A DNA stretch of 64,000 nt from a phage. Under the pieces are notes generated by a model. It saw only the letters and a program-made list of their open reading frames with translations, did no database searches and was not told the DNA's origin. Positions 1 to 24,715 of the stretch are shown piece by piece. Every line of letters begins with the position of its first letter. Position 1 is the first letter of the stretch. The position numbers were made by a program, and so were the translations under genes. The DNA is taken from sequence record PQ724394.1; one strand, written 5' to 3'.

Positions 1-779
1 TTATCAGTATTCACAATTTCCTCACATTTTTCTTGGTAAATTTCAGCGTCAGTTTTTGGAACAGGCCATTTGATTTCGCGAACTGTTACTAAAACTTCAT
101 ATCCTTTCCAGCCTAAGTGGTGTTTAACTTCTTGGGTCTCATATTTCTCTACTGTATCCATCAAAGCTAAGGCTTGTTCGATAGTATTCAAGGTATCGTA
201 AGCAATATCTTGATACTTTACAACTTCCGCATCATCTTTAGGTTTCCAACTAGGTGACCAAATAACAGAAATAATAGCTTTTCCTTTATAACTATTTGTT
301 TTAATCATGCAATTAGCCATCGGGTGAATAGTACGACAATCACCGGAAACTATAGTTTTAGAGGCCGCTTTGAGAATTAATGCAGAGTTAGCCTTGAATT
401 CGCTAACCCAACGTTGCGGAAATAAACTACTAGGGTCCATACCTTTAATTTTGACATAATCTTTTATGGTATCACCAAACCATTTGTAGCTAACAACATG
501 GTTAGAACCCGGATATTTCTCTTTACCGAACTCAGAAAGGATGTCCTTATTGACCAGTCGAGAAAGCAGTCGAGAACCTTTAAATGTATCTACGATATCA
601 GGAATAAACAAACGACCCGCTATCTTTTCGATTTCAGCTTTGAAACAGCGCGATAATGCATCATCAATTTGGTCGACCCATTTATTGATATTAGAAACTA
701 TTACCACATATGGGGTTAATGGAGGGGTTTTGTCAGTGATATACTTAGTAAAGGCATTAATGTATTCAGTACGGGTCAT
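1..779 (-). CDS. hypothetical protein, 3' end runs off the window edge
   Basis: Open minus-strand frame from ATG at 777-779 to position 1 with no stop; absent from the ORF track because it is incomplete; no recognisable motif. Confidence 0.45.
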   Translation of the reverse strand, partial: MTRTEYINAFTKYITDKTPPLTPYVVIVSNINKWVDQIDDALSRCFKAEIEKIAGRLFIPDIVDTFKGSRLLSRLVNKDILSEFGKEKYPGSNHVVSYKWFGDTIKDYVKIKGMDPSSLFPQRWVSEFKANSALILKAASKTIVSGDCRTIHPMANCMIKTNSYKGKAIISVIWSPSWKPKDDAEVVKYQDIAYDTLNTIEQALALMDTVEKYETQEVKHHLGWKGYEVLVTVREIKWPVPKTDAEIYQEKCEEIVNTD

Positions 780-838
780 GATATTCTCCTCAGTAGTTGA
801 TAAAAGGATTATACTCCATCCGTCCTTGGATGTAAACA

Positions 839-1744
839 CTATTTTAGAGCTAATAGTGCCGCGCTGAGCTTGTCACGCTGGTTTTCCATATTCTTGATGC
901 GGGTCAATACGTCTTGAATGCTCTTTTTCTCATCTTCAATCTGACCATTTAAACGGTGGATTGATTCCTGAATGCTATCTGCATAATAGGTCTCAATAGG
1001 TTTCATCGTAGGGTTAGTAACAACCAAAGAATTATCAGGTTTAATTTTCCAATGATACGGTTCGGAATTGAATGGACTAGGCACAGCAGTGGTTTTGAAT
1101 TTGTCATAGGCAGCATACTGGCCTACGCTGTCACATGATACTGTAGAGGTAGCGGTAGATATACGACGTTCCATTTGTGGGTCCTTTTGTTGGGATTGAT
1201 AAGGGGCATAAGATAAAAGATATTCGCGAGTTAGTTTAACATTAAAATACACTGCATCGGCTTGCCCTGAACAATCGGCATATTCATCGGTTGTAACTTT
1301 ATACGATTCTACCGCTTTAATACGATTTAATGCTTCTTTGAATAGGGTTTTGAATGCTTCACGAAGAGCCTTATTACCTTTTGAGGTAGGACGGAAACGA
1401 ACTTGAATACCGTCAGCCAGAATATTAATGACTAGGTTATGAGCCGTAAAATTAATATTCTTGATATTAACAGGAACCGTAGAAATACGTCCTGCAGTGG
1501 CCAAGAGGTCTTTGATATTAGCCCGCAATGTTGCACCAAACAGGTGGGCTGGGCACCGGCAATAATCGTTCAAAGAACTAATATAGGTCCCTTTACGTCC
1601 TACACCATAAGTATAATTACCATTACAAATATGACCAAAGTCGGCCAGCCGATCGATAGCGATACGACGAGTCGTATCGTGGTCGTATATAGAATATTCT
1701 TTACGTGTTTTAATGTTCATATTAAAGTCCAAATAATTTTTCAT
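839..1744 (-). CDS. hypothetical protein (301 aa) with Cys/His-rich N-terminal region and C-terminal coiled coil
   Basis: Long ORF in minus-strand gene array; CxxxxxxC..CxC..H cluster near N-terminus; function unknown. Confidence 0.5.
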   Translation of the reverse strand: MKNYLDFNMNIKTRKEYSIYDHDTTRRIAIDRLADFGHICNGNYTYGVGRKGTYISSLNDYCRCPAHLFGATLRANIKDLLATAGRISTVPVNIKNINFTAHNLVINILADGIQVRFRPTSKGNKALREAFKTLFKEALNRIKAVESYKVTTDEYADCSGQADAVYFNVKLTREYLLSYAPYQSQQKDPQMERRISTATSTVSCDSVGQYAAYDKFKTTAVPSPFNSEPYHWKIKPDNSLVVTNPTMKPIETYYADSIQESIHRLNGQIEDEKKSIQDVLTRIKNMENQRDKLSAALLALK

Positions 1745-3864: not shown

Positions 3865-4845
3865 TTATTTCAGAAGTGTAACTTCAGCGATTTCGCTCCA
3901 GTCATTTTTATCGGTGGCAATGAAGTCCGCCAGATAAAGAGCCGTACGCAATGATACGTTACGAAGACGAGATACATTAGCCTTCATCCATGCTAAAGCT
4001 TGATAAGTCTCAGCATCAGTCAGACCTCGGTTTTGCATCATATCAGTGGACAGGATAACGTCTTCAACACGAACCATAATCTCTTCGTTCGAGTGAACTC
4101 CGAGGTCCAAGTAAACTGAACGAGATACTAAAGCCTGGAGGTGCGGAGCAAGTTTAGTACCACGTTCTAATTCACGGTCAATATCAACGTTGGTGATGAA
4201 CACGATGGTGCCTTCGTATTCGAATTCTTTATCGATATTTTTATCATCGAGATAAGAACTTGAAGTGCTCCAGCACACCTTACGTTTCTCTCCTGTATCC
4301 AACGCCGCTTTAAGAAGGTTCAGGATATCCATGTCAGAGAATACATCAACATCATCAATAAGAAGAACACTATTAGGGCCGCGGTTATTCCAAAGCTGCT
4401 CGTAAAGACCGATTCCACTAATCTTTCCGTTGATTGATTTATATTCGATAGTTTCATTTTCGTGGGCATTTTGTAATGCTTTATCCAAAGAGTATGTTTT
4501 ACCAATACCTGCGGCACCGGAGATGATAAGGGAACGAATTTTACCATCGATGATTCCGTTAGTCATCATGTTCATTACTTTAAAACGTTTGTTGATGCGG
4601 TGTTTCATTTCTTCGGCGGATTCAGTAATCACCGCAGGAGCTTCGGCACCTTCCATTTCGATGTCACATTTGAACACCCATACACCACGTTCAACACCAT
4701 CAATCTGTACAAATACCTTACCATCACCGAGATGAGCTTCGGATTCATGAATTTTATTAGGGAACCAGGTTTTACCTGAACTCATGAACGTACCAGAGAT
4801 TTCATTACCACGATAGATACCTTTGTTGATTTTGATAGTTAACAT
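3865..4845 (-). CDS. AAA+/P-loop ATPase (326 aa)
   Basis: Walker A GAAGIGKT, Walker B VLLIDDVD, sensor-like IVFITN; ATG at 4845 preceded by RBS GGAGAATAAA and a PeSL-like promoter. Confidence 0.6.
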   Translation of the reverse strand: MLTIKINKGIYRGNEISGTFMSSGKTWFPNKIHESEAHLGDGKVFVQIDGVERGVWVFKCDIEMEGAEAPAVITESAEEMKHRINKRFKVMNMMTNGIIDGKIRSLIISGAAGIGKTYSLDKALQNAHENETIEYKSINGKISGIGLYEQLWNNRGPNSVLLIDDVDVFSDMDILNLLKAALDTGEKRKVCWSTSSSYLDDKNIDKEFEYEGTIVFITNVDIDRELERGTKLAPHLQALVSRSVYLDLGVHSNEEIMVRVEDVILSTDMMQNRGLTDAETYQALAWMKANVSRLRNVSLRTALYLADFIATDKNDWSEIAEVTLLK

Positions 4846-4961: not shown

Positions 4962-6002
4962 TTAACGGTAATAAGAGTTGTGGTTGTCAAGGTACACCTC
5001 TTCGACGAACTTGTCCCAGAACTTCATGTCCACCTTCGCAGGCATACCATTCTTAGCTGCCTGGATGGCCAGAACTTCAACTAAATCGACAGTATCTTCA
5101 AGAAGTTCTTGAACTTCTTTAAATGGTAATTCACCAGCTTTAATCAGCTTAATGATAGAGGCTTCACGCAATGGGAATACCAAGTCACCAGTTTGGTAGA
5201 TTTCCATCAATTGGTACCCGGCACGATAAGCATGGCTCAGAGCTTTCCAGTCAATACCTTCATTGGCTTCAGCCTTACGAGCACGTTCGCCATATTCGGC
5301 ATCGAGTTTATTCAGAGATTGCTTAAGCTCGACCAATGACAAAGTAGTTTGGTACTTACGTCCGAGGACAGTATAGAACGTTTGAGGACCTGTTTTCTCA
5401 TGGTTATGAAATACCCATTCGCAAAACTCGTTTTCAGGGAGCCTGTGCTTGATATCTTCTACCTTAGTCCGACGTAAACGATCCGGAATGCCTTCTTGAT
5501 AATCAACCCATTGTTCAGGAATCTGGTTAACAATTGCCAGTACACCACGCAGTGCAGCCAATCGAGAACCTTTAACACCATATTTAGAGGCTTGCTTACG
5601 GACGTACCCTAAATAGGCTTTCATGTTAGTTGTATAGAAACGCGAACGGTTATCTTGGATAAATTTCCATACATCAGGTAAATCAGATTTAACCACTAGT
5701 TCAGGTGGAGTGTGGAGCATATCCAGAGCAACGGTTTCGCCTTCAGCAGCCAGTTTAAAGAAATATTTCAGACTGTAAAGCTCATGGTCAACATCATCTT
5801 TAGTGTTTTTGGAAGCAGTGTTATTCGTATTCAGGTTGGTATGGTTCATTGCCGTACCTAACAGAATATCACGCGGATGCGGAACAAAGATTTCTTTAAA
5901 ATCGACATCAGATTCCGGAGTACTTGTTCCATAAAGATGGCTACCGAAGTAGCCTTTCATAACTGTTCTCATTCTTTGTTCTCGAAGTGAATTACAGGAC
6001 AC
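4962..6002 (-). CDS. Pol-beta-superfamily nucleotidyltransferase-like protein (346 aa)
   Basis: N-terminal GS-x10-DVD motif (YFGSHLYGTSTPESDVDF) typical of the nucleotidyltransferase fold; substrate unknown. Confidence 0.55.
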   Translation of the reverse strand: MSCNSLREQRMRTVMKGYFGSHLYGTSTPESDVDFKEIFVPHPRDILLGTAMNHTNLNTNNTASKNTKDDVDHELYSLKYFFKLAAEGETVALDMLHTPPELVVKSDLPDVWKFIQDNRSRFYTTNMKAYLGYVRKQASKYGVKGSRLAALRGVLAIVNQIPEQWVDYQEGIPDRLRRTKVEDIKHRLPENEFCEWVFHNHEKTGPQTFYTVLGRKYQTTLSLVELKQSLNKLDAEYGERARKAEANEGIDWKALSHAYRAGYQLMEIYQTGDLVFPLREASIIKLIKAGELPFKEVQELLEDTVDLVEVLAIQAAKNGMPAKVDMKFWDKFVEEVYLDNHNSYYR

Positions 6003-8746: not shown

Positions 8747-9025
8747 TTATAGCTTTTTAAGCTTGCGACAATAAGAATAGAACACGTCGTTAAAATTATA
8801 TTCAACCCAATTCCTCTGTATAGGCGAGGTAATGGAAAGCATATAATGCGCTTTAATTAAATCCATCCCATTTTTATTAGGGCATTCTTTATTATTAGCA
8901 TTATACGTCGCTGCTACAACTTCTATCTCTCTTTTGTAAGCCGCATCATCCATGATGGGCGAAAGAACAATATAAGAGATGGCCACAGCGAACGCTAGAA
9001 TTAAAATCTTTGAATTTAGGTCCAT
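8747..9025 (-). CDS. hypothetical signal-anchored protein (92 aa), rI.1 position
   Basis: N-terminal hydrophobic helix ILILAFAVAISYIVL; lies between tk and the rI-like gene. Confidence 0.45.
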   Translation of the reverse strand: MDLNSKILILAFAVAISYIVLSPIMDDAAYKREIEVVAATYNANNKECPNKNGMDLIKAHYMLSITSPIQRNWVEYNFNDVFYSYCRKLKKL

Positions 9026-9032
9026 AGTACCC

Positions 9033-9605
9033 TCAACTCGTTATTTCTATCCAGTGCTTCCTGCACAATGACACGTAAGAATCGTTGCCACCTATAGAAA
9101 CTTGGGCTCCGTCCTTAATTGCGACACCATCTTGGACCCTAGCAGTCATAGTAGCTTTACGGCCGCAATGGCACACACCTTTGTACTCAACGAGTTTATC
9201 TGCCGTAGCGAGTAATTCGGCAGAACCAGGAAACAGTTTACCCTGAAAATCAGTTCTTAGCCCATAACACATAACCGGAACGTTATAATTGTCTACTATC
9301 TTTGCCAGTTGTTTTATCTGTGTAGGTTCTAAGAACTGTGCTTCATCCACAAACACACAGTGGATATCTTTTTGAGATTCAGCCCAACGATAGAACTCGT
9401 ATAGGTCCATATCTGGAGTCACTGCATTAGCCTCTTGACTAATCCCTATACGAGACGAAATGGTATGGCTTGATTCTCTATTGTCTATCGCAGGCTTTAA
9501 AAGGAGCACGCCCATACCACGTTCTTTATAATTATGGGCGGCCGTTAGCAATGAAGCGGTTTTACCGGAGTTCATTGCCGCGTAGTGAAAATAAAGTTGA
9601 GCCAT
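9033..9605 (-). CDS. tk: thymidine kinase
   Basis: P-loop MNSGKT at N-terminus, C-terminal Cys cluster CHCGRKA...C typical of thymidine kinases; 190 aa. Confidence 0.9.
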   Translation of the reverse strand: MAQLYFHYAAMNSGKTASLLTAAHNYKERGMGVLLLKPAIDNRESSHTISSRIGISQEANAVTPDMDLYEFYRWAESQKDIHCVFVDEAQFLEPTQIKQLAKIVDNYNVPVMCYGLRTDFQGKLFPGSAELLATADKLVEYKGVCHCGRKATMTARVQDGVAIKDGAQVSIGGNDSYVSLCRKHWIEITS

Positions 9606-9614
9606 ATTACCTTC

Positions 9615-9788
9615 TTAAAGACTATTTACATAAGCAATTAATTCATTTTCCTTTTTAGAAAACTCATCCTCTTCGCCGCCTCTCCAATCCCAATCCAGAG
9701 AGTTATCAAATTCGCATTCTATATTAAGTTCCATGAGCTCATGGATAAGCTCAAACAATTTGTCTTTCTGTTCTTTACTCAAACTCAT
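9615..9788 (-). CDS. small acidic hypothetical protein (57 aa, below the ORF-track cutoff)
   Basis: Hand-translated ORF MSLSKEQKDKLFELIHELMELNIECEFD...; ATG overlaps upstream stop as ATGA; fills the gap upstream of tk. Confidence 0.35.
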   Translation of the reverse strand: MSLSKEQKDKLFELIHELMELNIECEFDNSLDWDWRGGEEDEFSKKENELIAYVNSL

Positions 9789-9991
9789 TTGGGTTCCCCA
9801 TATCGCACAAATTTAGGATGTTCGCAATAACCGGAATGAAAACCTTCACCCTTATGATTAGAACATCCTTTATTAGAACAGTACCACCAGTAATCAAATT
9901 CACATTCCATTTCATCGTTGCATAAAGCGGCGATTACTGGCCATTCGCATTTTTCACATTTGGCCGTTTTAAGAATTCGGGCTTGGCTCAT
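9785..9991 (-). CDS. Cys-rich putative zinc-binding protein (68 aa)
   Basis: Eleven Cys including CEKCEW and CSNKGCSNH motifs. Confidence 0.45.
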   Translation of the reverse strand: MSQARILKTAKCEKCEWPVIAALCNDEMECEFDYWWYCSNKGCSNHKGEGFHSGYCEHPKFVRYGEPK

Positions 9992-10185
9992 AATTCAATT
10001 CCGTCCATAGCCAAAATTCTTTTTCGTTGGGCCTTGAGAGCTGTTTGGGTTTTGTCATAATCTTCTTGACTACCGCTAGGCTGTAAAGCCGCTACTTTTT
10101 TGGCCAAGTGAATAAGCTTATCCAAGTTTTCAACAATACGTTCTTGTTCTTCATTCAGGCTCATAACCATTGCACCTTTAAGCAA
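9988..10185 (-). CDS. hypothetical protein (65 aa)
   Basis: Small ORF with overlapping stop/start in array. Confidence 0.4.
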   Translation of the reverse strand: MLKGAMVMSLNEEQERIVENLDKLIHLAKKVAALQPSGSQEDYDKTQTALKAQRKRILAMDGIEL

Positions 10186-10373
10186 TATTCTTCTACATGC
10201 TGTTTACGTTTATTTTTATCTATAAAAGTATATTCAACATATTCACCGATATACCATTTATCCGTGTTGTGTTGGCTTTTTATAGGGCATTTAGTTACTC
10301 GGGTTTCGGTCCAGCGCCGAATAATTTCGGCTTTGTTTTTAGGGTCAAACGGATGTGGGTAGTGTGCTTTCAT
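10161..10373 (-). CDS. hypothetical protein (70 aa)
   Basis: Small basic ORF in array. Confidence 0.4.
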   Translation of the reverse strand: MKAHYPHPFDPKNKAEIIRRWTETRVTKCPIKSQHNTDKWYIGEYVEYTFIDKNKRKQHVEEYCLKVQWL

Positions 10374-10824
10374 AATCCACCACTATTAAATCAATATCAG
10401 GGGTAAACATGTCGATTAATTTAGAAACCTTGTCCCAATCACCGCCAGCAATACCACAACCAATGCGAGGAATATAAATTCTTGGTTTAAACAAAAGAGT
10501 TTCTGCTTGTAGATTTAATTCTATCATACAGTTTACTAAAGCACCGTAATCAAGATTAGGGCCTGGTTCGTATTGTGTATACAAGTTATAGCACATACCA
10601 AACCCTGCAGGCTTATGTTTAAAAACAATAGACATGTCGCCTAATTTATCACGAGAACCGTATTCAGTAGTGGTCTTATCAATTTCTAATATTTTAGGAT
10701 AGGCTCTTGCTAATTGACCAGCAACACCTGAACCCATAGTATGAAAACAGTTGCACCCATGTGCAATAATATTACCTTGGAGAAACAGGGCGACGATATC
10801 GCCCTTAATATAATCAATAATCAT
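10345..10824 (-). CDS. macro-domain (ADP-ribose binding/processing) protein (159 aa)
   Basis: GDIV...NIIAHGCNCFHTMGSGVAGQ and IPRIGCGIAGG align with the macro-domain NAAN...GGGV...G and xSTGxxG motifs, compared from memory with E. coli YmdB. Confidence 0.55.
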   Translation of the reverse strand: MIIDYIKGDIVALFLQGNIIAHGCNCFHTMGSGVAGQLARAYPKILEIDKTTTEYGSRDKLGDMSIVFKHKPAGFGMCYNLYTQYEPGPNLDYGALVNCMIELNLQAETLLFKPRIYIPRIGCGIAGGDWDKVSKLIDMFTPDIDLIVVDYESTLPTSV

Positions 10825-11177
10825 TTAGAGTTTAGCCCTCGGTTGTAAGAGTCAACGAGTCTGTCTACCATAGACGCGCACATTTCTTTGTACTTTTTAT
10901 CAGATGGAACACATTCAGTAACGTTTAGACGTTGCTCGTATCTTTTAGAAAGAGTTTTCTCTTTCATTCGGCGATGCTCGACGTCGTTCTGCCCATCTTT
11001 AAAAGCAGCTGTTATTTTTGAACTGAATTCAATAACACATTCAGTATTACTCGGATGACAATAATCTTTTGCTGTACGGGTGGCATACTCGACAATTGAA
11101 TTATTTGTATCATCAACCTGTGATGCTAATACTCCCGGAGCAATCAACATAAGCGCTATAGTCATCTGTTTAATCAT
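10821..11177 (-). CDS. secreted hypothetical protein (118 aa, signal peptide)
   Basis: N-terminal MIKQMTIALMLIAPGVLASQ signal-like sequence. Confidence 0.45.
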   Translation of the reverse strand: MIKQMTIALMLIAPGVLASQVDDTNNSIVEYATRTAKDYCHPSNTECVIEFSSKITAAFKDGQNDVEHRRMKEKTLSKRYEQRLNVTECVPSDKKYKEMCASMVDRLVDSYNRGLNSK

Positions 11178-11717
11178 TTAATATACCGCCTCAAACATCT
11201 TTTTAGATTTTAGGTAATTGGCCTTTTCTAGAACTTCGGAAGCATATTTACTGCCTGCTTTGACATTCCAGCCCGCATTATAAGAAGCAATCGCTTTTCT
11301 CAGGTCACCTTTGTGAACATTAATCCAATAAGACAGCTCAATGTAGGCCCAAGAGGCACTGTTCTGTCGTTTTTGGACCATACGAATTATTTCTTTGTCT
11401 GACATCTTCCAACCTACCTGTTGAACACGACTTCTTAACGTAGGCAAGTAATTTTGGAACATGCCATAAGCATGGTGCTTATCTTTATTTAAACCTTGAT
11501 TAATTCCAGCAGATGATTCCTGCCATAATAATCCGGCCATTATATATCCTAATCCTTTTTGATTAGGGTTTTCTTTGAACTTTCCCGACTTTTGGTATTG
11601 TTCACCGAAAGCATACGCATAATGTAAATTATCGAGTTGTTCATTACTGAAAGTAGGCTCTACGCTATAGGCAGACATACTAACTGTCAATAGTAAAGTG
11701 GCTAATACTTTTTTCAT
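11178..11717 (-). CDS. secreted lytic transglycosylase-like protein (SLT domain, 179 aa)
   Basis: Signal peptide MKKVLATLLLTVSMSAYS; SLT-like motifs QESSAG, GMFQ, SYNAG. Confidence 0.5.
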   Translation of the reverse strand: MKKVLATLLLTVSMSAYSVEPTFSNEQLDNLHYAYAFGEQYQKSGKFKENPNQKGLGYIMAGLLWQESSAGINQGLNKDKHHAYGMFQNYLPTLRSRVQQVGWKMSDKEIIRMVQKRQNSASWAYIELSYWINVHKGDLRKAIASYNAGWNVKAGSKYASEVLEKANYLKSKKMFEAVY

Positions 11718-11729
11718 GAGACCTCATTA

Positions 11730-12188
11730 TTAAAGATAGATTACTTTCGTGCTGGTTTTACCTTCTAAACGTTTAGAGTTAACAAATGCCATACGACATT
11801 TTAATGAATATCCTTTATCAGGATGTTTACGATCTACGGTCATACCCAACCATAAGGTTTTATCGGTAATCTCGAGACGCAGTGGACGATACACCTTACC
11901 TGGAATAATTTCAGATTCTACGTCAGGAAGAGGCTCCTGGATTAAAAATTCATGGATTTCTTTAACATGATTGTGGAGCTTCTTGAACAAAGAGAAAACA
12001 TATTTTTCGTCAATTTCACGTTGGATAGCACGGTCCAACAAGTGATTAGAGTACTTAATAAAGAAAGCTGGGACCCCGCTCTTAATGGCGGCTTTTTTGA
12101 TGGACGCGTTAAGTTCACGAAATTCGGTTTCGAACTGACGACGTAATTTGTTGCGGCGGATGAATACTTCTGAATTAATTTCTGACAT
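11730..12188 (-). CDS. regB: RegB site-specific endoribonuclease
   Basis: MSEINSEVFIRRNKLRRQFETEFRE... closely matches T4 RegB from memory; ATG at 12188 just downstream of a PeSL-like promoter; the ORF track extends upstream through the promoter. Confidence 0.75.
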   Translation of the reverse strand: MSEINSEVFIRRNKLRRQFETEFRELNASIKKAAIKSGVPAFFIKYSNHLLDRAIQREIDEKYVFSLFKKLHNHVKEIHEFLIQEPLPDVESEIIPGKVYRPLRLEITDKTLWLGMTVDRKHPDKGYSLKCRMAFVNSKRLEGKTSTKVIYL

Positions 12189-12245
12189 TTTGTAATCTCC
12201 TGTAGTTGATAGGTCTATAGTACCACGTCTACAGGAGATGTAAAC
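12189..12245 (-). promoter_or_regulatory. PeSL-like early promoter cassette
   Basis: Minus-sense GTTTACATCTCCTGTAGACGTGGTACTATAGACCTATCAACTACAGGAG; perfect 9-bp inverted repeat CTCCTGTAG/CTACAGGAG. Confidence 0.65.
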
Positions 12246-12250
12246 TGCTT

Positions 12251-12529
12251 TTAGTATTTTTCCTCGGGTTGGAAAACGGAACGACAGGCCCACATGGATG
12301 CTTCTTTCAAGCGTTCGATTGCCGTGCGAATCTGGGCGAGACGTTCATGAGTGAGGTCGAATTCTTCACCACTCATTTTATCAACACCTGAGCATGTAAA
12401 GGCTTCAACGTATTCTTCTTCTAGTGCTTTAAAGATTAAGCCTAATCGAACTTCAGCATCTTTAATGGCATTCACTTTACTGATTTTATCGTCGGTATGT
12501 GGCTTGTAACCCTTGATATCTTCAATCAT
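12251..12529 (-). CDS. hypothetical protein (92 aa)
   Basis: ORF in array. Confidence 0.45.
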   Translation of the reverse strand: MIEDIKGYKPHTDDKISKVNAIKDAEVRLGLIFKALEEEYVEAFTCSGVDKMSGEEFDLTHERLAQIRTAIERLKEASMWACRSVFQPEEKY

Positions 12530-12744
12530 TTCGCTTCCTCATCAGATGCAATATCATATTCTACAAAACGAAGGCCATCGTATCCACCACTAACAGAGAT
12601 ATACGTAGTCGGGTAAACAATTTCTTTACCATTCCATTGGCCGCCGTCCCAACATTCCATAAAGCCTTGTTCGCCCTGTTCGTGGAACCAGTCAACAAAC
12701 ATCTTCAGAGCTTCATCAGAGCCTTCAATTGTCAATTTAGACAT
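12526..12744 (-). CDS. hypothetical acidic protein (72 aa)
   Basis: ORF in array with overlapping stop/start. Confidence 0.45.
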   Translation of the reverse strand: MSKLTIEGSDEALKMFVDWFHEQGEQGFMECWDGGQWNGKEIVYPTTYISVSGGYDGLRFVEYDIASDEEAK

Positions 12745-13033
12745 ATTTTTTCCAGTCAGAAATCATATGAATCTCTTGGTCATACGTCAAGAGACTGCGA
12801 GTAATAATACCCTTACACGGCCCTGAGATGAACTCGAGGGTGAAGTAAGGAACCTGTTTCATTAATCGGATGCTTGGGGCATGACATCTAAAACGAGAGC
12901 CCTTAAAGGGCCCTGACATGAATACATATTCCAATGGATAGAAATAAGCATATTCGAAATTTGCAGTAAGGTCCTCTCTTCGAACCTTACGTGAGAAATA
13001 ACAGAACTCAAAAAGCTCTTCATCAGTCATCAT
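12737..13033 (-). CDS. hypothetical protein with internal duplicated SGP-x-KG motif (98 aa)
   Basis: Two copies of a Y/F-x-LE-x-x-F/I-x-SGP-x-KG segment within 98 aa. Confidence 0.45.
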   Translation of the reverse strand: MMTDEELFEFCYFSRKVRREDLTANFEYAYFYPLEYVFMSGPFKGSRFRCHAPSIRLMKQVPYFTLEFISGPCKGIITRSLLTYDQEIHMISDWKKYV

Positions 13034-13557
13034 TGCATTCCTATCACAAAGAACAGTGGCAGAGGTTTAGAACCCTGGCACATAAATTTGTTAATCATTA
13101 CCTGGTAAGCTTCATAGAACTTATCCATCGATGGAAGGCGCATTGGCTCTTCGATAATAATCAATAATCGAGTAACTGATAGACCACGATACTTATGGAA
13201 GTTATCTTCGTCTAAAAATGAACGCACAGTATCATATACAACAAACCCAGGACCTTCTACCTGAAGGTGTGGGTGGGCCTTAGAAACCCTTTTTATTATA
13301 TTACAGATTTCTCGTGAGCGATGCGAAGAACTCGACATAACAATCACATCATTACCCTTGGAAACCCAATCAGCCGCGAACTGGGCAAGGGCACTTGTTT
13401 TACCTGTTTGACGCCCACCGTCAAGTCGAAGAGTACCAAACTCTTGCATTCTTGAAGTAGGTTCGTACCAGGTATATTGGTCTGAGTCTAAACGTTCAAT
13501 GGCGCGTTCAGCGAAGGCGTGCATTAAGGTTAGATAAATAGGGGTTAAAAATTTCAT
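13030..13557 (-). CDS. P-loop NTPase-like hypothetical protein (175 aa)
   Basis: Walker A-like GGRQTGKTS and hydrophobic-acidic LLIIIEEP. Confidence 0.45.
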   Translation of the reverse strand: MKFLTPIYLTLMHAFAERAIERLDSDQYTWYEPTSRMQEFGTLRLDGGRQTGKTSALAQFAADWVSKGNDVIVMSSSSHRSREICNIIKRVSKAHPHLQVEGPGFVVYDTVRSFLDEDNFHKYRGLSVTRLLIIIEEPMRLPSMDKFYEAYQVMINKFMCQGSKPLPLFFVIGMQ

Positions 13558-13704
13558 AGTGGTCTCTTAGTTGTGGGCCGTTCCTTGGCACATTAATTCG
13601 TCCCTTTCTGCATTTACCCATTACCGCACTTGGGCTCGACCTTATTACAGGTTGGCAGGAGTCCCTCACAGAATTGTGAGGTCCAGGTTGCTCCCATTTA
13701 ATTA

Positions 13705-24180: not shown

Positions 24181-24482
24181 GTAACCTTGTCGGGGTTCCA
24201 CCTGCTAGGCAAGTGTTTGTACGAAACGCCGGGATTCGAACCCGGTTATTAAGCAGTTGACGCTACTCAATATTTTTTTAAAAGGCCATATCTCGACCAT
24301 ATCCGAACGTTCCGTCAAAAACGCTACTCGGCTTACGGCAAAGATATTTCCTCGAATCGATAATTCGATGCGCCGTTTCAGCTGTGATAGTAAAGAACCA
24401 GAACACAGTAAAACTGTGGGAGGAACTATACTCCAGGGAACTTCAGTCCGACGACTTACCGGTAGCGACCCGGTTTCTTGTT
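24181..24482 (-). ncRNA. candidate structured stable RNA(s) or degenerate tRNA-like elements adjacent to the tRNA cluster
   Basis: No credible ORF; contains canonical T-arm-like CCGGG-TTCGAAT-CCCGG and several hairpins but no complete cloverleaf by hand. Confidence 0.25.
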
Positions 24483-24558
24483 TGGTCGAGACAGTAGGGA
24501 TCGAACCTACGACCCAGGACTTAGAAGGTCCTTGCTCTTCCTTCTGAGCTATGCCTCG
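24483..24558 (-). tRNA. tRNA-Arg (anticodon TCT)
   Basis: Hand-folded cloverleaf: acceptor CGAGGCA/TGTCTCG, anticodon loop CTTCTAA, T-arm GTAGG-TTCGATC-CCTAC, encoded CCA. Confidence 0.7.
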
Positions 24559-24562
24559 TATT

Positions 24563-24637
24563 TGGCGGACATGCATGGATTCGAACCATGGACCAATTGA
24601 TTAACAGTCAACTGCTCTACCGCTGAGCTACACATCC
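24563..24637 (-). tRNA. tRNA-Asn (anticodon GTT)
   Basis: Hand-folded cloverleaf: D-arm GCTC/GAGC, anticodon loop CTGTTAA, T-arm CATGG-TTCGAAT-CCATG, encoded CCA; acceptor stem has two G-U pairs. Confidence 0.6.
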
Positions 24638-24641
24638 GAAT

Positions 24642-24715
24642 TGGTGGCCCTGGGTGGAATCGAACCACCATCCAGCGATTATGAGTCGCTCGCTTGACCG
24701 TCCAGCTACAGGGCC
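24642..24715 (-). tRNA. tRNA with CAT anticodon (Met or lysidine-modified Ile)
   Basis: Hand-folded cloverleaf: acceptor GGCCCTG/CAGGGCC, anticodon loop CTCATAA, T-arm GGTGG-TTCGATT-CCACC, encoded CCA. Confidence 0.7.

Follow-up and report, generated by a model that had tools for sequence, protein, structure and literature searches.

A T-even phage macrodomain of the Tk.4/AdfM family with glutamine at the position of the DarG catalytic lysine

The window analyzed here, a 64,000-nucleotide stretch of phage DNA (PQ724394.1), contains a gene for a stand-alone macrodomain that, judged by gene order and protein identity, corresponds to T4 tk.4 (adfM) as its syntenic ortholog and belongs to the T-even Tk.4/AdfM group. 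We consider it likely that the encoded protein removes ADP-ribose from DarT2-modified thymidines in the single-stranded DNA of the phage, by a lysine-independent hydrolysis in which a glutamine would assist. The gene has been annotated since the deposition of JS98 and the job of its T4 ortholog has already been assigned, which makes this a known feature; little is new overall, and the value lies in the context, namely a phage that would carry the standard T-even anti-DarT2 factor. One point appears to go beyond the literature that we found, and it is the replacement of Lys by Gln in the catalytic center of the T-even family.

Genomic context and orthology to T4 tk.4

The window derives from a JS98-like T-even phage of the genus Dhakavirus (family Straboviridae), and the 3.3 kb around the gene are 95-98% identical to JS98-like coliphages. 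The macrodomain ORF starts with ATG and occupies 10345..10824 on the minus strand, exactly where the initial annotation had placed an ORF of 159 aa; its assignment as a coding sequence and T4 ortholog draws on the ORF list, Pfam, identity to T4 and gene order. That order (regB, vs.1, vs, macrodomain gene, tk.3, small ORFs, tk) matches both JS98 and T4, and the protein is 56% identical to the full length of T4 Tk.4 over 155 aa (E 1e-68). RefSeq labels the JS98 and T4 proteins 'Tk.4; contains A1pp phosphatase motif', and the name 'macro domain protein' is used elsewhere. A search of 50,697 phage records gave homologs of the window protein in 2769, versus 291 for DarG-type macrodomains, and macro domains have been reported in 41% of myoviruses (PMC9503650).

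On its own strand, the gene overlaps both neighbors. The stop codon of vs overlaps the tk.4 start in the tetranucleotide ATGA (10821..10824, minus strand), as identified from the sequence and the ORF coordinates; the vs/tk.4 overlap is likewise 4 nt in T4, and we infer that translation of tk.4 may be coupled to that of vs. At the other end, tk.4 runs 29 nt (10345..10373, minus strand, from the ORF coordinates) into the tk.3 ortholog that follows it, which is read in a different frame. This overlap measures 29 nt in both the window and the JS98 annotation versus 4 nt in T4. Because the tk.3 product matches DUF7202 across the whole profile (positions 1-70 of 70), the upstream tk.3 start is real. 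A promoter and terminator consensus scan of positions 8900-13700 returned 13 promoter-like sites versus 13.1 expected by chance, so the start of transcription cannot be placed from such a scan.

The window and T4 proteins are similar in size (159 versus 155 aa), are encoded at the same place, flanked by vs and tk.3 and with a start/stop ATGA overlap, and have identical H-G-C-N-C, N-L-Y-T-Q and P-R-I-G motifs. They differ in the phosphate loop, which in the window protein follows the family consensus (GCGIAGGDW) and in T4 is a rare variant (GAGIGKGNW), and in four additional C-terminal residues of the window protein. They differ also in that a requirement against DarTG2 is known from T4 alone.

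This requirement came to light when a T4 transposon library was plated on DarTG2-expressing E. coli, with tk.4 as the sole significant hit (bioRxiv 10.1101/2025.11.20.689424, a preprint of November 2025). A clean tk.4 knockout was sensitized to DarTG2, and the gene was renamed adfM, for anti-DarT factor Macrodomain; enzymatic removal of ADP-ribose from DNA by T4 AdfM was inferred in the preprint (10.1101/2025.11.20.689424). The outcome of the screen fits an earlier observation that T4 without adfA and adfN is still resistant to DarTG2, from which a further factor was expected (PMC11825919). Our literature search turned up no T-even Tk.4 protein that had been studied biochemically. Since deletion of tk.4 makes T4 sensitive to DarTG2, an anti-DarT2 function is also the most likely one for the window protein, and the suggestion in the initial annotation that the protein could reverse ADP-ribosylation such as that by DarT agrees with the genetics of the T4 ortholog (10.1101/2025.11.20.689424).

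Fold and macrodomain class

Profile searches, structure prediction and structural comparison agree on a macrodomain. The protein matches the Pfam Macro family (PF01661) at 31.6 bits, above the gathering cut-off of 22 bits, with an E value of 1.7e-7 and coverage of profile positions 2-117 of 118, and it matches PHROG 335 with an E value of 3.3e-71. A sequence search of PDB chains returned BT1257 (1.5e-10), yeast Poa1p (1e-9) and SCO6735 (5.5e-8), and more weakly M. tuberculosis DarG (4e-5) and human TARG1 (0.009); with a family profile in place of the single sequence, the same matches improved to between 1e-19 and 1e-11. An AlphaFold2 model computed from 64 homologs, with the T4 row left out, reached a mean pLDDT of 94 and a pTM of 0.88. 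The first Foldseek matches of this model were TARG1, at the top, followed by BT1257, Poa1p and DarG.

The model adopts the alpha/beta macro fold around a central mixed sheet, and it has the conserved Asn and the two Gly-rich loops between which diphosphate and distal ribose are clamped; across 121 homologs, MGSG (aa 30-33), GCGIAGG (aa 122-128) and N25 are invariant or nearly so. Both structure and sequence place the protein nearer to the ALC1-like class (TARG1, DarG, SCO6735 and Poa1p) than to MacroD, PARG or viral Mac1. Given the Pfam, PHROG, PDB, model and Foldseek results, the window protein is, as far as comparison and prediction can assign it, a macrodomain of the ALC1-like (TARG1/DarG/SCO6735) class. 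The profile match, the fold and the conserved loops thus bear out the macro-domain call of the initial annotation. It had named two grounds for abandoning that call, the lack of a match to macro profiles and missing Gly-rich loops; the match and the loops are both present.

Active site

The three motifs that the initial annotation had quoted are found in the protein as GDI (aa 8-10), NIIAHGCNCFHTMGSGVAGQ (aa 18-37) and IGCGIAGG (aa 121-128). Its reading of the second as an NAAN..GGGV loop stands insofar as a substrate-binding loop is there, but the fit is loose, and the class is ALC1-like (TARG1/DarG) and not MacroD.

The N-terminal Gly-Asp motif GDI (10795..10803, minus strand) is recognized from homolog conservation, with G8 in 118 of 121 homologs and either Asp (87) or Asn (32) at position 9; G8 is unchanged in all reference macrodomains of the joint alignment, and the motif presumably contacts adenine, as we assume from macrodomains in general. 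Conservation and alignment together define NIIAHGCNCFHTMGSGVAGQ (10714..10773, minus strand) as the substrate-binding loop, with H22, G23, N25 and G31-x-G33. H22, G23, N25 and C26 occur in all 119 homologs that cover these positions, and G33 in 121 of 121. The strand that ends in NLYTQ (aa 80-84, 10573..10587, minus strand) is delimited in the same way and provides Gln84, encoded by CAA at 10573-10575. N80, Y82, Q84, P119 and W130 are each present in every one of the 121 homologs. Finally, the Gly-rich phosphate-binding loop PRIGCGIAGGDW (aa 119-130, 10435..10470, minus strand) stands out by conservation and by its likeness to BT1257 and SCO6735, both of which have the nearly identical PRIGCGLAGGxW; G122 and G124 are each found in 120 of 121 homologs.

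The reference macrodomains were checked against their PDB entries and all were aligned jointly with MAFFT; hhalign was unreliable near the Lys/Gln column for PhiKZ AdfM. Window residues H22, G23, N25, Q84, G122 and G124 align with H24, V25, N27, Q85, G126 and G128 of SCO6735, and N25 also aligns with DarG N22. The Q84 column holds K80 in DarG, K84 in TARG1 and the lysine of the PTK motif in PhiKZ-type AdfM; profile-sequence alignments likewise set DarG K80 and TARG1 K84 against Gln84. The surrounding motif reads NLYTQ in the window protein and T4 Tk.4, NMIGQ in BT1257 and SCO6735, NFPTK in both DarG macrodomains, MFPTK in PhiKZ-type AdfM and YLITK in TARG1.

This pattern directs attention to SCO6735 of Streptomyces coelicolor (5e3b) and BT1257 of Bacteroides thetaiotaomicron (2fg1/2afc), Gln-type ALC1-like macrodomains that are 26-27% identical to the window protein. 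As in this subclass, the window protein has Gln at the Lys position, the conserved Asn and the adjacent His. With Gln85 and without the Lys or Asp residues, SCO6735 cleaves thymidine-ADPr made by DarT; it outpaces both DarG and TARG1 in this reaction and also rescues cells from DarT, whereas Q85A, Q85E and N27S are inactivating (PMC9411070). Its authors proposed that the backbone of Val25 holds a water molecule while Gln85 positions the ribose, and described Val/Ile at position 25 as SCO6735-specific (PMC9411070). A mobile loop about five residues longer than in DarG/TARG1 and bearing Lys was linked to DNA binding (PMC9411070).

The window protein departs from these relatives in several respects. 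The mobile loop, 5-6 residues longer in SCO6735/BT1257 and carrying Lys89/Lys93, is absent, and a 6-column gap in the window protein and T4 Tk.4 lies opposite KDSKGL / TGSKG. In place of SCO6735 Val25 there is Gly23, neither Val nor Ile and invariant in the Tk.4 family; since the role proposed for Val25 uses its backbone carbonyl, Gly23 could still serve. SCO6735 and BT1257 are strongly electropositive cellular proteins, whereas the window protein is viral and acidic; its pI, calculated as 5.05, is a crude proxy for DNA binding and not decisive. By alignment, the T-even family is therefore best described as pairing an SCO6735-type catalytic center with a loop of DarG/TARG1 length.

Comparison with the Lys-type macrodomains sharpens the contrast. 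The DarG2 macrodomains of T. aquaticus and M. tuberculosis (5m31, 5m3e, 5m3i) have Lys80 where the window protein has Gln84, and DarG2 carries a C-terminal DarT-binding domain that is lacking in the single-domain window protein. An identity as DarG antitoxin was rejected on a score of 27.2 bits against the NCBIfam model NF048014 (cut-off 250) and on the missing catalytic Lys. Human TARG1 (OARD1) also belongs to the ALC1-like class and is recovered with an hhalign probability of 98.6%, but its Lys84/Asp125 dyad corresponds to Gln84 and Ala126 in the window protein. Yeast Poa1p, another member of the class, has an HxCNC motif in common with the window protein; its described substrates are small-molecule ADPr derivatives.

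A second phage protein carries the same name. PhiKZ gp104, independently also called AdfM, is a chimallivirus anti-DarT2 macrodomain that is imported into the phage nucleus and removes T-ADPr in vitro (Cell Rep 2026, PMC13309987). Like the window protein it is a phage-encoded stand-alone macrodomain, in this case one that counters DarTG2, but it is of the Lys type (N23/K78, PTK motif). Identity with the PhiKZ type was rejected, with ~20% identity, a BLASTP E value of 4e-4 to a PhiKZ-like homolog, and Lys versus Gln in the catalytic column; as their sequences indicate, the T-even and PhiKZ AdfM proteins are different macrodomain subfamilies under one name. ICP1 AdfB, a DarT binder of 77 aa that is neither an enzyme nor a macrodomain, was likewise set aside as a relative.

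Proposed function and alternatives

Because the Lys column holds Gln and SCO6735 provides a precedent for this arrangement, catalysis by T-even AdfM is probably SCO6735-like and not DarG-like. In a host with DarTG2, DarT2 would put ADP-ribose on thymidine of single-stranded phage DNA and thereby block replication. The phage protein, an orphan stand-alone ADP-ribosyl glycohydrolase made during infection, would hold the ADP-ribose between its two Gly-rich loops and hydrolyze the thymine-ribose bond, restoring DNA that can be replicated. Gln84, held by Asn25 and next to His22, would act in the lysine-independent manner proposed for SCO6735, in which Gln keeps the distal ribose in position and the reaction is started by a water bound to the backbone. 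We infer in this way that the protein shares the job of its T4 ortholog, acts enzymatically on DNA and follows this mechanism. Several observations count against this explanation: the evidence from T4 consists of genetics reported in a preprint, identity to Tk.4 is 56% and the phosphate loops differ; the window protein also has neither the DarG Lys nor the Lys loop of SCO6735, its pI is acidic, and Gly23 takes the place of Val25.

If the T-even enzyme cannot use the lysine mechanism of DarG, this would bear on AdfM mutants, inhibitors and substrate-range assays. The Gln-for-Lys site predicts that the K-to-A logic applied to DarG fails for T-even AdfM, where Q84 and N25 would be the positions to target by mutation. 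More tentatively, T-even AdfM could represent a third active-site design among erasers of DarT2 damage and accept a broader range of substrates than DarG does. Such a design may combine the lysine independence of SCO6735, the short loop of DarG/TARG1 and the invariant H-G-C-N-C ... N-L-Y-T-Q signature, and the range may extend, for example, to Asp/Glu-linked ADP-ribose on proteins or base-linked ADP-ribose on RNA. Were this true, T-even AdfM, present in thousands of phage genomes, would be a general eraser and not a DarT2-specific antidote.

Protection against DarT2 could also be mainly non-catalytic, with the toxin bound and blocked in the fashion of an antitoxin, which we regard as unlikely. 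Catalytically dead SCO6735 Q85A does inhibit DarT in vitro by interaction, and more strongly than DarG K80A or TARG1 K84A (PMC9411070); in addition, the T-even family is missing the canonical catalytic lysine. Yet the residues on which hydrolysis by SCO6735 depends (His, Asn, Gln and two loop Gly) are invariant or near-invariant in up to 121 homologs, and we therefore expect an enzyme rather than a binder. Moreover, the 159-aa protein has no counterpart of the C-terminal DarT-binding part of DarG, for which the model spans 338 positions.

A Poa1p-like small-molecule hydrolase, either an ADP-ribose-1''-phosphate phosphatase or an O-acetyl-ADP-ribose deacetylase, is a quite improbable alternative. 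The word 'phosphatase' in the annotations goes back to the historical A1pp domain name and to no measured activity, which leaves the similarity to Poa1p as the point in its favor. Nothing seen near the gene would supply ADPr-1''-phosphate or O-acetyl-ADPr, neither Tpt1/KptA nor a sirtuin, and the only known phenotype of the ortholog is against a DNA ADP-ribosyltransferase. Hydrolysis of such small molecules could still occur as a side reaction of the window protein.

The protein might instead erase the marks of the phage's own Alt, ModA and ModB enzymes on RNA polymerase and other host proteins, including RNAylation by ModB, and so time early gene expression, although we give this very little credence. 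The initial annotation, which had framed the role along these lines, supposed that the phage also carries ADP-ribosyltransferases, and this holds for JS98, the closest annotated relative, where modA and modB are both present; these genes lie outside the window region, and the macrodomain gene adjoins no ART gene. Alt and Mod enzymes modify arginine. For ALC1-like-class macrodomains, to our knowledge, the established substrates are Asp/Glu esters and thymidine, and not arginine N-glycosides. Equally hard to credit is the destruction of ADP-ribose-derived immune signals (such as the cyclic ADPR isomers of Thoeris), which the initial annotation had raised and which found no support here, or the reversal of other nucleic-acid ADP-ribosylation, as on RNA: there is no direct evidence for it, and the macro domain of ThsA is structurally much less similar to the window protein than DarG, TARG1 or BT1257.

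Genome context also counts among the points against the proposed removal of DarT2 marks. The neighbors of the window gene are vs and tk.3, with no adjacent darT, and no DarT-like neighbor was seen beside homologs on a Pelagimonas chromosome and two phage contigs; genomic context in this sample therefore gives no independent link to DarT.

Neighboring genes and other features of the window

The Vs.4 ortholog (92 aa, 12251-12529, minus strand) matches the Pfam family Acb2_Tad1_hairpin (PF24729) with an E value of 4.8e-16, a match that identifies its gene as an anti-CBASS gene for a cyclic-nucleotide sponge of the Acb2 type. The macrodomain gene follows 1.4 kb downstream of it on the same strand, and this stretch of early genes would thus hold two counter-defense genes. 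A 110-kb metagenomic phage contig with a Tk.4-family macrodomain carries a Pfam Acb5 gene (541-888, plus strand) ~4 kb upstream of it, another case of a macrodomain among counter-defense genes.

Between tk and tk.3 (9615-10185, minus strand), the window has three small ORFs of 57, 68 and 65 aa, belonging to PHROGs 653, 2306 and 3452 of unknown function; JS98 has two, which accounts for ~160 extra bases in the window. The RegB ORF, taken mechanically, runs from a GTG start over 11730-12293 (minus strand, 187 aa), whereas the PHROG endoribonuclease profile and the JS98 and T4 annotations fit an ATG at 12188 and a product of 152 aa. Just upstream of this ATG, TTTACA-16-TACTAT with a TG extension (12244-12217) resembles a sigma-70 site.

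ARAGORN called a 97-nt 'tRNA-Phe' with anticodon AAA at 24219-24315 (minus strand), adjoining three normal tRNAs (Arg-TCT, Asn-GTT and Met-CAT) at 24483-24715. The Rfam tRNA model at its gathering threshold recovered the three normal tRNAs and not the tRNA-Phe call, so that the latter is either spurious or an unusual RNA of non-canonical type. Elsewhere, one of two neighboring ORFs on the minus strand, 4962-6002 or 3865-4845, encodes an RlaP-type nucleotidyltransferase domain (RNA repair pathway, pol-beta superfamily) and is probably the counterpart of T4 nrdC.11; the protein adjoining it has weak, sub-threshold matches of the AAA/STAND-NTPase-like kind.
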